From Acholeplasmataceae bacterium (GTDB lineage Bacteria; Bacillota_I; Bacilli_A; ML615J-28; CAG-313): a stretch of 64,000 bases of DNA. Below the pieces are notes generated by a model, which was not told the origin of the DNA, ran no database searches, and saw nothing but the letters and a program-made list of their open reading frames with translations. How positions within the stretch are numbered: position 1 is the first letter of the stretch; the number at the start of each line of letters is the position of its first letter. Where the stretch lies: NCBI GenBank assembly GCA_012838945.1, contig DUOG01000051.1, positions 3,845-67,844 on the forward strand, given 5' to 3'. This document shows, piece by piece, positions 46,210 through 50,664 of the stretch. Both the position numbers and the translations under genes were made by a program.

Positions 46210-47160
46210 ATGTCGTTTGCGAGTGAAGTAAAGAAAGAATTATTTTCAATTCCGAATCAGCCTTGTTGTGAAAAGGCCCAACTGATGGGCATCTTGAGAT
46301 GCCTTTCAGAAATTGTCATTGTTAAAAACCAGATGAAAATTAAAGTGACAACCAAACTGTCTTCAGTGTTAAGACACATCGTGCCCCTTCTTCGAAAACA
46401 TTATCAGGCTGAAGGAGATTTATCATATCAAGATAATCTTTCAATGGATAAAAAAAGATCATATGGAGTAATGATTTCTAGTAACGCTGATAAAGTTATC
46501 AAAGAATTATCATTACTACCATATGAAGAAGTTGATTTAAATCATCCATTATTGAAGAAAGAATGTTGTCAAACTGCTTTCATCAGAGGTAACTTTATTG
46601 CTAGGGGTTCAATTAACGATCCCAAGAAAAGCAATTATCATTTAGAGATACTTTATAAAAATGAAAGCGATGCTCTCTTAGCTATTACGATACTAGCTAA
46701 AAACTATATGAATGCACGAATATCAGAAAGAAAGAATGGCACCTTAATGTATATAAAAAAAGCCGAAGAAATTAGCAATTTCTTGGCCTTTATTGGTGCA
46801 GCAAACGGTATCTTCTATTTTGAAGATTCGCGGATTTTAAGAGACTTAAATAATTCGGTTAATCGAATTATGAATTGTGATATTGCTAACTCTAATAAGT
46901 CGCTTCAAACATGTCAATATCAGTTAGAAGCCATTAAGTATTTAGAAGATGAAGGCATCGTTGATAAATTGACGCCTAGACTAAGAGATGCCATTAATCT
47001 TCGCAAGGAATATCCCGATAGTTCATTAAAGGAATTAAGTGAATATTCTTATAATGTTTTGGGAAAAGAGATGTCTCGTTCAGGAATTAATCATTGCTTA
47101 AGAGAAATAGTTAGCATATATGAAAAAAGAAAACAACCCTTAAAAGAGTTGAATGATTAA
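46210..47160 (+). CDS. whiA: DNA-binding protein WhiA
   Basis: 316 aa; N-terminal SFASEVKKEL; degenerate LAGLIDADG-like repeats; a C-terminal HTH. Confidence 0.8.
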   Translation: MSFASEVKKELFSIPNQPCCEKAQLMGILRCLSEIVIVKNQMKIKVTTKLSSVLRHIVPLLRKHYQAEGDLSYQDNLSMDKKRSYGVMISSNADKVIKELSLLPYEEVDLNHPLLKKECCQTAFIRGNFIARGSINDPKKSNYHLEILYKNESDALLAITILAKNYMNARISERKNGTLMYIKKAEEISNFLAFIGAANGIFYFEDSRILRDLNNSVNRIMNCDIANSNKSLQTCQYQLEAIKYLEDEGIVDKLTPRLRDAINLRKEYPDSSLKELSEYSYNVLGKEMSRSGINHCLREIVSIYEKRKQPLKELND

Positions 47161-47444
47161 TCAGAATATTCTAAATCGCTAAAATCAAATAGGTCTCTCG
47201 GGTTGATGTTAAGCGAATAACAAATCTTTTCGATATTTTTGATGGAAATGTTTTTTTCGGCCCGTTCGATTTGTCCGACATAGGTGCGATGGAGACCTAC
47301 TTCAAAAGCAAAAGCTTCTTGACTCATTCCCAAATTAGTACGTATTTGACGAATCTTTCGTCCTAAAAGTACGGGAATTGGTTCATTATTAAGAAACGTA
47401 GAATTGTTAATTGTATTCCTTTTTTCCATGTTACAAAACCTCAT
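47157..47444 (-). CDS. XRE-family HTH transcriptional regulator
   Basis: LGMSQEAFAFEVGLHRTYVGQIERAEKNISIKNIEKI. It is convergent with whiA, and the two stop codons overlap (TTAA). Confidence 0.75.
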   Translation of the reverse strand: MRFCNMEKRNTINNSTFLNNEPIPVLLGRKIRQIRTNLGMSQEAFAFEVGLHRTYVGQIERAEKNISIKNIEKICYSLNINPRDLFDFSDLEYSD

Positions 47445-47503
47445 CCTATATAATACACTAAAAAATGGGATAAATCTACAGCCTATAAGTAGCAGGTGAT
47501 ATA

Positions 47504-47857
47504 ATGATAAAAAAAATTGGGATTGATATAGTTGCGAATAAGCGGATAAAAAAGCTGCTTAAAAATGAAAAGTTTATTAAACGCATTCTGTCAGATGAGG
47601 AACTAGCGACATTTAATACTTTCACTTTGGAAAAAAGGAAGGTTGAATATTTAGCTGGAAGATTCGCCGCAAAAGAAGCTTTAGTTAAAGCAATCGGAAG
47701 TCAAGATGGAGAGTTTAATTTTAATCGCGTTAGTGTTTTGAATGATGCCGACGGGACACCAATAGTCAAACACTGTTTTGATAATTTAATAATTCATGTC
47801 TCAATTAGTCATGAAAATGAATATACGGTGTCTATGGTCATTATTGAAAAAAACTAA
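47504..47857 (+). CDS. acpS: Holo-[acyl-carrier-protein] synthase
   Basis: IGIDIV...EALVKAIG fold, 117 aa. Confidence 0.85.
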   Translation: MIKKIGIDIVANKRIKKLLKNEKFIKRILSDEELATFNTFTLEKRKVEYLAGRFAAKEALVKAIGSQDGEFNFNRVSVLNDADGTPIVKHCFDNLIIHVSISHENEYTVSMVIIEKN

Positions 47858-47901
47858 TAAAACTTGACATATTTCGTATTTAATATTGGTATAATACTTT
47901 T

Positions 47902-47970
47902 AGTGCTATGCCAATATTTAAAGAACAGATAGCACTGTTGTTAAGTGCTATTTTTTTTATAGGAGAATAG
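47902..47970 (+). promoter_or_regulatory. Transcription-attenuator-like leader upstream of the Ca2+ ATPase gene: alternative antiterminator/terminator hairpins and a 20-codon uORF
   Basis: AGTGCTAT (47902-09), ATAGCACT (47929-36), AGTGCTAT (47944-51), then T8. uORF 47908-47970 encodes MPIFKEQIALLLSAIFFIGE. TGgTATAAT lies at 47887-95. Confidence 0.4.
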
Positions 47971-47973
47971 ATT

Positions 47974-50664
47974 ATGTTTGAACAAAAATCAATTTTAGAG
48001 TGTCTAAAAGAGTTAGACACTAATTTAGAACAAGGATTAACGGAAAGTGAAGCCCAAAGAAGATTAGAAGAATATGGGAAAAACGCGTTAGAAACAGATG
48101 GTAAAAAGAGTATCTGGAAGATTTTCTTTTCCCAAATAAATGAGCCAATGATCTATATCTTATTAGCGGCAGCAGCTATCTCTTTGTTGCTCGGGGAGAT
48201 TGCTGATGCGGTGATTATTTTAATTGTGGTGCTTTTGAATGCGATTATTGGCACCGTCCAAGAGGCCAAAGCTGAAAAAGTATTAGAATCACTTAAAAAA
48301 CTATCTTCTCCAACCGCAACCGTCAAACGCGATGGCATTTTAAAAGAAATTAAAGCAGAAGATGTAGTGCCAGGTGACATTATGCATTTGGAAGCCGGAC
48401 GCTATGTCAGTGCTGATTTACGTTTAGTTGAAGCAATTAACTTAAAGATTGAAGAATCTTCATTGACAGGAGAATCATTACCAGTATTGAAAAATGCTAA
48501 TATGGTCCTAAAAGAAAACACACCAATTGGTGATAGGTTAAATCTGGCCTATATGTCCACCAGTGTGGTCTATGGCCGAGGTGTTGGTATTGTTTGTGGT
48601 ACTGGTATGAGTACCGAGATTGGTAGGATTGCTGAACTTATAAATAAGGAAGAGGGCGAACCAACGCCATTACAAAAACGACTTGGTGACCTCGGTAAAC
48701 TCTTAGGAATAGTGACTATCATAATTTCAGTGGTTCTTTTCATTCTCGCAATTATCCAAAAACGTGATCCACTAGCAATGCTAATCACAGCAATCTCGCT
48801 TGCGGTAGCGGCCATTCCGGAAGGACTACCAGCCGTTGTTACTATTGTACTAGCACTTGGGGTACAACGAATGGTAAAGGTAAATACCATTGTCAGAAAA
48901 CTCCATAGTGTTGAAACCTTAGGTGCTGTAAGTGTTGTCTGTAGCGATAAAACCGGAACCCTAACTGAAAATAAGATGACGGTCACTAAAGTATACTATA
49001 ATTTTAATACTCATGATGTTGAAGAACTTGATAAACAAGTATTGCTTAATGAGGCTAGTTTACTCGTAACGGGGATGGCACTTTGTAATGATGCTAGTAT
49101 TGAAGGAGAAAACAGAATCGGTGATCCGACTGAAATTGCTTTAATAGATCTTGCTTATGAGTTTAAACTAAAAAAAGATGATTTGCAAAAGAAATATCCT
49201 CGGGTTGATGAAATACCTTTTGATTCAAATCGTAAGATGATGACAACTGTTCATCTTTCCAATAATAAAAGGGTCTCTTATACTAAAGGAGCCCTAGATC
49301 AAATCTTAAATAAAACAACCGGTATTAGTATTAATGGAATAATTAAGCCAATTACCGAAAAAGACATTATCCGGATTCAAGAAGCAGCTGCTTTAATGGC
49401 TAAGGGGGCCCTAAGAGTTTTGGCGTTTGCTTATAAAGAAGATGTCCAAATGGCATCAGAAGATAACTTAATCTTTGTTGGGTTTGTGGGAATGATTGAC
49501 CCAGCTAGAAAAGAAGCAGCACCAGCGGTACAGTCATTAAAAGAAGCAGGGATAAAAACAGTTATGATTACTGGTGACCATAAAGATACCGCCCTAGCGA
49601 TTGCTAAAGACTTAAAGATTGCCTACAGTGAAGCAGAATGTATGAGCGGTGAGGAACTCAACTTGATGACGCAAGAAGAGTTGAATAGTAAGGTTATGGA
49701 TGTTTCCGTTTATGCTCGGGTTTCACCAGAACATAAAGTTATGATTGTAAAAGCCTTTAAGAGTCATGATTTGATTGTGGCGATGACGGGTGACGGAGTA
49801 AATGATGCTCCTAGTTTAAAAGCAGCAGACATTGGGATTTCCATGGGGATTACAGGAACAGACGTTGCTAAGGGAGCTTCGGATATGACCCTTAGTGATG
49901 ATAACTTTGCATCAATTGAAAAGGCAGTTCGTGAAGGTCGCGGAATCTATTCCAATATAAAAAAATCAGTTTTGTTTTTGCTTTCAAGTAATTTTGGTGA
50001 AGTAGCAATTATGTTCTTAGGAATATTATTGTTCTTCCCAGTACCTCTCCTACCAATTCATATTTTATGGGTGAACTTGATTACCGACTCCTTACCTGCC
50101 CTTGCCTTAGGTGCAGATAATATTGATGATGACATTATGAAAGAAAAACCACGAAAGTCAACTGAAAATTTATTTGCGCATGGTGGTTTAAAACTTACTT
50201 TATTCTATGGTATCCTAATTGCTTTGATTTCATTTGCGATGTTCTTAAGTGTACCAATTCAAGCCCTTATAAATCAAAACCTTCCGATTACCATAACTAA
50301 TCTCACTCAAATGTTTAAAGATGATCCAGACAGGTTGATTCTATCAAGAACTTTAGCCTTTTCAACTTTAGCCGTTTGTCAGTTATTCCATGCCTTTGGG
50401 ATGCGAAATGTTAAGAAATCTATCTTTGACCCTAAGATTTTTGGCAAAAATAGACTAATGTTTTTTTCCTTTATTTTTGGAATGTTATTACAGGTTGCGG
50501 TGACGGAAGTGCCATTTTTAGTCACATTCTTTAAGACAAGTAGCTTGAGTATTAACTATTGGATTGTCATTTTATCAGTGGCTTTAATCCCGGTAACAAT
50601 GCATGAGATTATATTTGTGTTAAATTATTATCGTGAAAAAAGAAAAAAAGTGAAAGAGTATTAA
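47974..50664 (+). CDS. Ca2+-transporting P-type ATPase (P2A/SERCA-like, YloB-type)
   Basis: CSDKTGTLT phosphorylation site, TGES, MITGD, GDGVNDAPSL, and 10 TM helices. Confidence 0.9.
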   Translation: MFEQKSILECLKELDTNLEQGLTESEAQRRLEEYGKNALETDGKKSIWKIFFSQINEPMIYILLAAAAISLLLGEIADAVIILIVVLLNAIIGTVQEAKAEKVLESLKKLSSPTATVKRDGILKEIKAEDVVPGDIMHLEAGRYVSADLRLVEAINLKIEESSLTGESLPVLKNANMVLKENTPIGDRLNLAYMSTSVVYGRGVGIVCGTGMSTEIGRIAELINKEEGEPTPLQKRLGDLGKLLGIVTIIISVVLFILAIIQKRDPLAMLITAISLAVAAIPEGLPAVVTIVLALGVQRMVKVNTIVRKLHSVETLGAVSVVCSDKTGTLTENKMTVTKVYYNFNTHDVEELDKQVLLNEASLLVTGMALCNDASIEGENRIGDPTEIALIDLAYEFKLKKDDLQKKYPRVDEIPFDSNRKMMTTVHLSNNKRVSYTKGALDQILNKTTGISINGIIKPITEKDIIRIQEAAALMAKGALRVLAFAYKEDVQMASEDNLIFVGFVGMIDPARKEAAPAVQSLKEAGIKTVMITGDHKDTALAIAKDLKIAYSEAECMSGEELNLMTQEELNSKVMDVSVYARVSPEHKVMIVKAFKSHDLIVAMTGDGVNDAPSLKAADIGISMGITGTDVAKGASDMTLSDDNFASIEKAVREGRGIYSNIKKSVLFLLSSNFGEVAIMFLGILLFFPVPLLPIHILWVNLITDSLPALALGADNIDDDIMKEKPRKSTENLFAHGGLKLTLFYGILIALISFAMFLSVPIQALINQNLPITITNLTQMFKDDPDRLILSRTLAFSTLAVCQLFHAFGMRNVKKSIFDPKIFGKNRLMFFSFIFGMLLQVAVTEVPFLVTFFKTSSLSINYWIVILSVALIPVTMHEIIFVLNYYREKRKKVKEY

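Follow-up and report, generated by a model that had tools for sequence, protein, structure and literature searches.

A candidate ribosome-independent transcription attenuator in the leader of a P-type ATPase gene from uncultured Acholeplasmataceae

The 64-kb stretch of DNA analysed here (the window) comes from an Acholeplasmataceae bacterium (contig DUOG01000051.1 of assembly GCA_012838945.1) and contains a gene for a P-type ATPase of 896 amino acids. The leader of this gene holds three 8-nt segments that can form two mutually exclusive hairpins, i.e. an antiterminator made of segments 1 and 2, and an intrinsic terminator made of segments 2 and 3 and followed by a U tract. A sequence-only reading had proposed this arrangement together with a hydrophobic upstream open reading frame (uORF) of 20 codons. 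We compared the leader among five lineages including the window and hold, with moderate confidence, that it is a ribosome-independent transcription attenuator in the 5' untranslated region (UTR) of a gene for a Ca2+/Mn2+-type P-type ATPase; the uORF was not upheld as a gene.

The ATPase gene and its leader

The ATPase belongs by its Pfam domains to the PII-type Ca2+(/Mn2+) P-type ATPases. Its best NCBIfam match is the PMR1-type Ca2+ ATPase, at a score below the curated cut-off, and its best relatives of solved structure are Listeria LMCA1 (6zhf) and human SPCA1. Thus, the Ca2+ P-type ATPase named in the sequence-only reading was correctly recognised and can be placed in class PII. The parts of the leader and the neighbouring genes are listed in Table 1.

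Table 1. Positions of the leader elements and neighbouring genes in the window
Feature	Positions	Strand	Description
ATPase gene	47974-50664	+	PII-type Ca2+(/Mn2+) P-type ATPase, 896 aa; presumed regulated gene
ATPase start codon	47974	+	ATG
Segment 1	47902-47909	+	AGTGCTAT (RNA AGUGCUAU); antiterminator 5' strand
Linker	47910-47928	+	GCCAAUAUUUAAAGAACAG, 19 nt; antiterminator loop
Segment 2	47929-47936	+	ATAGCACT (RNA AUAGCACU); terminator 5' arm and antiterminator 3' strand
Segment 3	47944-47951	+	AGTGCTAT (RNA AGUGCUAU); terminator 3' arm, runs into U8
U8/T8 tract	47951-47958	+	First T is the last base of segment 3
Shine-Dalgarno sequence of the ATPase gene	47962-47966	+	AGGAG; (T)AGGAG or AGGGAG kept in all lineages
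TTGACA/GACATATTT block	47864-47872	+	-35-like; TTGACA itself at 47864-47869
Extended -10 box	47887-47895	+	TGgTATAAT
Predicted transcription start	47902	+	A47902; first base of segment 1
Hairpin A inverted repeat	47879-47898 / 47902-47921	+	20-nt arms, UUU loop
Segment 0	47891-47898	+	ATAATACT; in the 5' arm of hairpin A
20-codon ORF (uORF)	47908-47970	+	MPIFKEQIALLLSAIFFIGE*; ends 3 nt ahead of the ATPase start codon; rejected as a gene
acpS	47504-47857	+	Gene upstream of the leader
XRE-family helix-turn-helix (HTH) gene	47157-47444	-	94-95 aa; convergent; 3' end overlaps the whiA end by 4 nt

The three segments and the U8 tract were found at the positions that had been reported for them. The 8-mer of segments 1 and 3 occurs four times on both strands of the 64 kb compared with 1.6 occurrences expected, and three of the four lie within this 50-nt stretch. 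The three-segment arrangement is unlikely to be due to chance.

An intrinsic terminator was called by a pattern scan at 47927-47953, followed by the T run. Its stem of 8-10 bp includes three G-C pairs, closes a 7-nt loop and runs into U8, and the hairpin folds at -13.3 kcal/mol (z = -4.1); a G+C-containing stem-loop followed by a U tract is therefore present on the transcribed strand. The terminator hairpin (hairpin B) is conserved at the orthologous position, directly before the ribosome-binding site (RBS), in the lineages L009, L101, L102 and L103, and U7-U8 follows it in every lineage. In total, the pattern scan, the folding score and conservation support the assignment of segments 2 and 3 and the U8 tract to an intrinsic terminator.

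Alternative pairing in orthologous leaders

Close relatives of the ATPase are few: the members of its 90% cluster are all at least 99.6% identical, i.e. the same species, one further lineage is 82% identical (L009/L010), and identity then drops to 61%. Therefore, we used AcpS as the query and looked up the encoding contigs, which added the lineages L101, L102 and L103/L104. A scan of a genome collection with the ATPase gave a best match of only 53% identity, which was of no use for aligning leaders; it exposed the riboswitch-like leaders described below. The five leaders share the gene order whiA-XRE-acpS-ATPase, with ATPase identities of 77-86% (compared with the window, 86% over the N-terminus in L101, 82% in L009/L010 and 77% in L103/L104), and the AcpS of L102 is 85% identical to that of L103.

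These leaders fall into two types. In type I (window, L009 and L101), GACATATTT, the block ATTGGTATAATACTTTTRGTGCTATRYCAAT, TAGCACT, AGTGCTAT followed by T7-T8, and the RBS are kept; the segments, the -10 box and the U tract are conserved, while the linker of 19-28 nt and the terminator loop have diverged. Type II (L102 and L103/L104) consists, from 5' to 3', of the promoter TTGACA-16-TGaTATAAT, GGGGCUUGGGG at 4-6 nt from the predicted start, the strand GAACAAUAAGAUSAAAC, a 7-bp hairpin kept by one-sided changes, CCUUAAGCACC, a loop, GGUGCUUA, a U-rich tract and the RBS. Type II thus carries an extra hairpin in the region of the type I linker, and the features common to this linker and the type II strand are limited to CAAU, A-richness and GAAC. 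Homology between the two types is clear in the terminator and in the RBS region.

All five leaders have an intrinsic terminator directly before the RBS and a 5'-proximal strand complementary to its 5' arm. Pairing of this strand with the terminator 5' arm, which involves 8/8 pairs in the window and 10/11 pairs in type II, excludes the terminator, as in an attenuator. Because an alignment of both types by MAFFT was out of structural register, pairs were counted on a hand-registered table. The terminator stems of types I and II differ at three positions, all of which are compensated (U>C, U>A and A>U in segment 2; A>G, A>U and U>A in segment 3). These three positions are also the ones at which segment 1 differs (A>G, A>U and U>G), and its pairing with segment 2 is preserved. 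Moreover, CCU upstream of the terminator arm offers the type II segment 1 three additional pairs, and the single change in segment 1 of L101 (A>G) keeps a G-U pair. Covariation for the alternative pairing was thus found at 3/3 variable positions, between two independent leader types only. The 5' strand therefore differs wherever the terminator stem differs between the types, and this supports the terminator/antiterminator reading; covariation of segment 1 is the main evidence and supports that the alternative pairing is selected as RNA. The two mutually exclusive hairpins of the sequence-only reading, which had recommended a comparison of orthologous leaders for covariation, are accordingly both present in five of five leaders and compensated at three positions.

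The extended -10 box that had been noted in the window is present, and TGnTATAAT is invariant in the five leaders while its flanks vary. A47902 is a purine 7 nt past the -10 hexamer and is the start predicted by the sigma-70-type spacing rule, matching the start at about 47902 that had been proposed. At 20 nt, TTGACA is too distant from the -10 hexamer to serve as a normal -35 box, and therefore the promoter must rely on the extended -10 box. GACATATTT is kept at an equal distance in L009 and L101, but TTGACA is replaced by AAGACA there. In the type II leaders, TTGACA lies 16 nt from the -10 box; a canonical promoter sequence is thus found upstream of the terminator, which would place the terminator inside the 5' UTR. 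The 20-bp spacer also raised the idea of a MerR-type promoter, and this was rejected: the spacer contains no conserved dyad, the -35 box is lost in L009 and L101, and no MerR gene lies nearby.

The leader:terminator-5'-arm duplex of the window was equalled or beaten in 20 of 3000 dinucleotide-preserving shuffles; over the leader types, 6-20 of 3000 shuffles attained the antiterminator duplex energy of the type I leaders, compared with 0-5 of 3000 for type II. As long as segment 3 is missing, the minimum-energy fold of every lineage is the antiterminator (window, -8.8 kcal/mol; L009, -9.9; L102, -20.4; L103, -19.5). Once segment 3 is available, the terminator dominates with a probability of 0.80 in the window, 0.75-0.92 in L009/L101 and 0.63-0.94 in type II (0.5-0.97 over all the folds), and termination is therefore the predicted default. 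Thus, the folding models predict that the antiterminator forms first and that the terminator wins at equilibrium, so that the default state would be off and the leader would follow the logic of an ON switch.

Several points weigh against this reading. At equilibrium, the antiterminator is a minor form, with a probability of 0.15 in the window, 0.3 in L102 and about 0 in L009, L101 and L103, and segment 1 of L009 and L101 has another partner (GUAGU) that is compatible with the terminator. Five lineages in two types make the covariation essentially one evolutionary contrast. The type I stems are almost invariant and segment 1 occupies promoter positions +1 to +8, so that a constraint at the DNA level is equally compatible with them. 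The leaders of ATPases at 61% identity (L012, L015 and L016) are without the terminator, and their synteny is different; they are therefore uninformative on the element, which is limited to a narrow clade. The leaders yielded neither a ligand pocket nor a binding-protein motif or Rfam family, and the linker is poorly conserved. Finally, the transcription start, termination and read-through are all predicted. In total, the comparative evidence supports the antiterminator reading, if thinly.

Hairpin A, read-in from acpS and competing explanations

A further hairpin (hairpin A), which the sequence-only reading overlooked, sets the -10 box opposite segment 1. Its 5' arm holds the -10 box and segment 0, and its 3' arm consists of segment 1 and GCCAAUAUUUAA. 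Hairpin A folds at -14.1 kcal/mol in the window (z = -4.2) and at -12.9 to -14.1 kcal/mol over type I (z = -4.55 in L009 and -5.0 in L101), and is absent from the type II leaders (L102-L104). Owing to G-U pairs at several positions, folding is more stable for the + strand than for the - strand (-14.1 versus -9.5 kcal/mol in the window; -12.9 versus -8.1 kcal/mol in L101). Three substitutions in the stem (G>A, A>G and C>U) all preserve pairing on the + strand, and the outer stem in L009 is maintained by different bases. The two imperfect positions, an A-C mismatch and a U-G wobble, are exactly those at which the 5' arm has TATAAT in place of TATAGC, which suggests that the stem is under a dual constraint from the promoter and from pairing. 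Hairpin A may also have a role at the DNA level.

The predicted start is the first base of the hairpin A 3' arm; thus, RNAs from the promoter would be without the 5' arm, and RNAs reading in from acpS would carry both arms. No terminator was found by the pattern scan between the acpS stop (47857) and the leader terminator. In the window, the predicted antiterminator probability is 0.40-0.41 for starts at 47900-47901, 0.15 for 47902, 0.025 for 47903 and 0 for starts further downstream. With upstream RNA included, it is 0.00 in all type I leaders (in the window, for starts at 47879 and further upstream). We read hairpin A, on the basis of these modelled folds, as an anti-antiterminator that would make the shared terminator unconditional for acpS transcripts. 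In AcpS relatives at 56-57% AcpS identity (L111 and L113-L116), which are without the ATPase, a strong terminator of its own comes directly after acpS (L111, 2119-2221; L113, 3851-3913), and a DUF378 gene is next. Therefore, the promoter, leader, terminator and ATPase gene behave as a clade-specific cassette.

The same architecture would also arise without sensing, if hairpin B is the acpS terminator, if acpS RNAs always terminate and if segment 1 lets a fixed fraction of promoter RNAs escape, so that expression of the ATPase is constitutive. Such a filter by promoter of origin fits the separate acpS terminator of the ATPase-less relatives and the lack of any other terminator between the acpS stop and hairpin B; it also fits the strength of hairpin A in three lineages (z of -4.2 to -5.0, with the + strand favoured), the coincidence of the predicted start with exactly the first base of the 3' arm, and an antiterminator probability of 0.15-0.41 for starts at 47900-47902 versus 0.00 from 47879 and upstream. 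However, type II keeps the terminator/antiterminator pair without hairpin A, regulated attenuators and riboswitches are usually laid out as such a cassette of promoter, leader, terminator and gene, and escape at equilibrium is near zero in L009, L101 and L103. We consider this explanation unlikely, albeit one to be taken seriously.

A role as DNA operators is a slimmer prospect. Here, the palindromes AATATTGG-N21-CCAATATT (around -10/+1) and TAGCACT-N7-AGTGCTA would bind a repressor, for which the neighbouring XRE protein is a candidate, and segment 1 would be a half-site. The inverted repeats do straddle the -10 box and the predicted start, and the XRE gene is syntenic in all five lineages. 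However, it is also syntenic in most lineages without the ATPase (it is absent in L105-L110), and the XRE/acpS intergenic region is without a conserved copy of the motif, a resemblance in the window not being kept in L009. Moreover, between the two types the segments vary with compensation and do not retain their sequence, the substituted positions of hairpin A stay paired solely as G-U on the + strand, and U7-U8 follows hairpin B in every lineage. The core ...GLHRTYVGQIERAEKNISIKNIEKI... of the XRE protein is presumably typical of controller (C) proteins of restriction-modification systems.

The half-site resembles a known operator. The CIRCE/HrcA operator is TTAGCACTC-N9-GAGTGCTAA, a 9-bp inverted repeat with a spacer of exactly 9 bp, and its half-site core TAGCACT/AGTGCTA is identical to the terminator stems of the window. 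By contrast, the cores are spaced by 7 nt in the window and by 11 in CIRCE (N7, not N11), the stems co-vary in type II, and a U tract follows the hairpin. The CIRCE pattern had no match within three mismatches in the window and was rejected on spacing. Likewise, ATTGG-N-CCAAT was discarded as a regulon motif, having no other intergenic copy in the window.

A metagenome scan for AGTGCTAT-N-TAGCACT-N-AGTGCTAT gave 84 loci, none of which was this leader; they comprised unrelated repeat arrays and one family of XRE-gene promoters. At best as a lead, the operator explanation can appeal to a human-gut metagenome family (L082 and others) in which AGTGCTAT-N13-TAGCACT-N7-AGTGCTAT lies directly upstream of an XRE-type gene and has no U tract; the L082 protein, however, shows only generic HTH similarity. 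In this family (L082, 600-720; also L022, L026, L028, L030, L039, L043, L051, L090, L096, L063, L079 and L042), extra AGTGC half-sites precede the XRE-type gene of 75 aa, and the arrangement resembles an array of operators for autoregulation, carried by a mobile element.

Genes of the same class are controlled by Mn2+ riboswitches of the yybP-ykoY family. The S. pneumoniae PII ATPase gene mgtA has a Mn2+ riboswitch leader with a terminator just 5' of the RBS (PMC6649816), and in the L. lactis yybP-ykoY riboswitch, a P1.1 switch helix made from the 5'-most strand is in competition with the terminator, and Mn2+, paused RNA polymerase and NusA stabilise this helix (PMC11087558). The leader of the window resembles these riboswitches (S. 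pneumoniae mgtA/caxP and L. lactis yoaB) in the class of gene and in a terminator just 5' of the RBS (PMC6649816). It also resembles them in that its 5'-most strand pairs with the terminator 5' arm and so shares sequence with the 3' arm (PMC11087558), and in default termination with read-through upon stabilisation of the 5' helix, both of which are predicted here (PMC6649816, PMC11087558). Thus, the competition of segments 1:2 with segments 2:3 before a PII ATPase gene corresponds to a P1.1-type switch helix, as a functional resemblance only. By contrast, the yybP-ykoY aptamer, with about 100 nt, multiple helices and conserved L1/L3 loops, has no counterpart: the switch strands are separated by 19 nt in the window, by 19-28 nt in type I as a whole and by one 7-bp hairpin and a 17-nt strand in type II. 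The 19-nt linker of the window could not hold any known aptamer, the type I linkers in general are too short and vary too much to serve as one, and the sequence suggests no metal-binding site. GGGAGUA and UCGUCA, the L1/L3 motifs of yybP-ykoY, are absent from the leader. Rfam scans of the window and of the related leaders gave only chance miRNA/snoRNA-like matches and no family at E<=10, in a tool that also missed the more distant leaders that we read as yybP-ykoY.

These distant leaders belong to ATPase homologues at 43-53% identity and contain GGGAGUA...UCGUCA...CCGG...AGAC and a terminator with the 5' strand repeated in its 3' arm (Geosporobacter L001, 1334-1460, and L002, 1326-1450; Hathewaya L003, 1352-1470; Erysipelotrichaceae metagenome-assembled genome L006, 1368-1480). 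We read them, by comparison with the consensus, tentatively as yybP-ykoY Mn2+ riboswitches; Rfam gave no match even at E<=10 (321-nt slice). If this identification is right, the Acholeplasmataceae leaders would keep the switch-helix logic without the aptamer. In L009 and L101, GAGUAG is fused to UAGCAC just before the terminator loop and resembles the two L1 strands of the riboswitch. This fusion hints at descent of the leaders from a riboswitch by deletion, which is a lead and not a result. Separately, a T-box leader downstream of the ATPase homologue in L006 (4164-4376) scored 86 bits, just under the gathering score of 93.

Descent from a riboswitch could also have left a functionless relic, in which the aptamer of a yybP-ykoY-like riboswitch is lost and the switch strands and a leaky terminator linger. 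The four distant leaders, with their terminators repeating the 5'-most strand, and the GAGUAG-UAGCAC fusion before the terminator loop in L009 and L101 are in line with this idea, for which the riboswitch assignment is tentative and has no Rfam match. However, the promoter, segments 1-3 and the U tract were kept down to 77% protein identity while neighbouring bases diverged, and segment 1 co-varies, which is unexpected in a relic. We therefore regard a relic as improbable.

The uORF was proposed as the basis of ribosome- or peptide-mediated attenuation, or as a small membrane partner of the ATPase. The ORF exists where it had been placed, overlaps all three segments and has a hydrophobic product; the reading as a uORF or small peptide fails in the comparison. 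Its start codon is ATA in L009/L010 and L101, a change that improves pairing in hairpin A, and beyond the predicted start, the leader of L101 is devoid of ORFs of 20 aa or more (the sole match, 2090-2164, overlaps with the stop of acpS and ends before the -10 box). In L011, whose ATPase is 100% identical, T7 for T8 shifts the frame, shortens the product and changes its C-terminus and stop. Only 6 nt of predicted leader precede the ATG, without a Shine-Dalgarno sequence, and type II has no conserved ORF, an 11-codon ORF of L102 being lost in L103 (ATG>ATC). There is thus no conserved translatable ORF of the kind expected for a leader peptide or for a small-peptide partner of a P-type ATPase (KdpF, MgtS/MgtR or sarcolipin-like). 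Because of the loss of the start codon, the frameshift, the lack of a Shine-Dalgarno sequence and the lack of an ORF in type II, both ribosome-mediated attenuation and a small-peptide partner are rejected as barely credible. The T7 of L011 (Logan contig, 2971-2985, compared with 47944-47958 in the window) may be strain variation or a homopolymer assembly error.

Other repeats were observed at the locus and elsewhere. Directly upstream of acpS, a 31-nt block (ATAAATCTACAGCCTATAAGTAGCAGGTGAT; 47471-47501; L009, 2451-2481) contains a CTAC...GTAG inverted repeat and the acpS RBS, and is identical in the lineage at 82% identity in a spacer that has otherwise diverged. A perfect 9-bp inverted repeat (AGTGTCTAA / TTAGACACT, with a 5-nt spacer; 47999-48021) lies in the first 50 nt of the ATPase coding sequence. 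Leaders of the ATPases at 61% identity contain the motif GAATACAATAT(A/T)AAT about 30 nt before the RBS (L012, 2455-2475; L015, 2460-2480; L016, 2455-2475), with a divergent glgC/glgD-like gene pair upstream. The palindrome AATAGCACTTTTAAGTGCTATT is clustered at or near contig ends (L019, L020, L029, L033, L034, L036, L038 and others; Ga0228710/Ga0228711/Ga0315913-15), and L041 contains a tandem array of the 13-nt unit ATAGCACTATTTT in both orientations.

Related attenuators, the proposed mechanism and its implications

In Bacillus subtilis pyrG, the antiterminator is formed from the extreme 5' end of the transcript, by a strand that is made through CTP-sensitive reiterative addition of G at the start. 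As in pyrG, the very first RNA nucleotides of the ATPase leader pair with the upstream arm of the leader terminator, and the 5' end would decide the outcome, with no aptamer, leader peptide or binding protein needed. Unlike in pyrG, segment 1 is templated, there is no homopolymer run at +1, and the gene is unrelated to nucleotide pools. The alternative hairpins are also shared with the trp/his attenuators, including a four-segment logic (0:1, 1:2 and 2:3) if hairpin A counts, and a P-type ATPase gene behind a regulatory leader is shared with Salmonella mgtA (mgtL leader). Enterobacterial mgtA is controlled by Rho-dependent termination and a Mg2+-sensing leader. In contrast to trp/his and mgtA/mgtL, the leader of the window is without a conserved uORF, start codon or Shine-Dalgarno sequence.

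For the attenuator that we favour, the following course of events is predicted. RNA polymerase would start at about A47902 from the extended -10 promoter, and segment 1, the first eight bases of the RNA, would pair with segment 2 as it emerges to give the antiterminator helix. Segment 3 could then displace segment 1, because it has the same sequence and lies only 7 nt from segment 2, and would form the more stable terminator hairpin with U8. By default, on thermodynamic grounds, most transcripts would stop 16 nt before the ATPase start codon, and read-through would be set by the persistence of the 5' helix. This helix would most likely be stabilised through an effect of a divalent cation (Mn2+ or Ca2+) on the RNA, or by a protein that binds the CAAU...GAAC linker in its single-stranded form; such stabilisation would parallel that of the P1.1 switch helix in the Mn2+ riboswitches of homologous ATPase genes. 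What bears on conditional read-through and on Ca2+ or another metal as the signal is indirect, namely the leaders of more distant homologous ATPases that we read as Mn2+ riboswitches. Downstream of acpS, no terminator comes before this one, and read-in RNAs also carry the hairpin A 5' arm, which would sequester segment 1; these RNAs are therefore predicted to terminate unconditionally.

A more far-reaching version, which we put forward as a speculation and consider quite unlikely, is an aptamer-less RNA switch that is set by the identity of the transcript 5' end and by the cation-dependent stability of a minimal 5' helix of 8-11 bp. RNAs from the gene's own promoter would bypass the terminator to an extent tunable by Mn2+/Ca2+ or by the choice of start site, and acpS read-in RNAs would be locked into termination by a hairpin with the -10 box as its 5' arm. 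Such a switch perhaps arose from a Mn2+ riboswitch that lost its aptamer and whose switch helix was re-purposed.

Transcription attenuators are well known; unusual here are an antiterminator strand that is predicted to begin with the first base of the RNA, and a -10 box inside a hairpin arm that would neutralise this strand in read-in transcripts. The scope is narrow, i.e. five lineages in one clade of uncultured Acholeplasmataceae, and within it, the uORF is a clear case of an attractive small ORF removed by comparative data. Most of what is known about the control of bacterial Ca2+/Mn2+ P-type ATPases concerns Mn2+ riboswitches, and a conserved attenuator without aptamer or leader peptide would raise the question of the minimum size of a terminator switch that responds to a signal or discriminates between promoters. 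With about 60 nt, the leader is a compact candidate for such a switch that is easily testable in vitro, and in these bacteria, one terminator may serve two transcription units differently.

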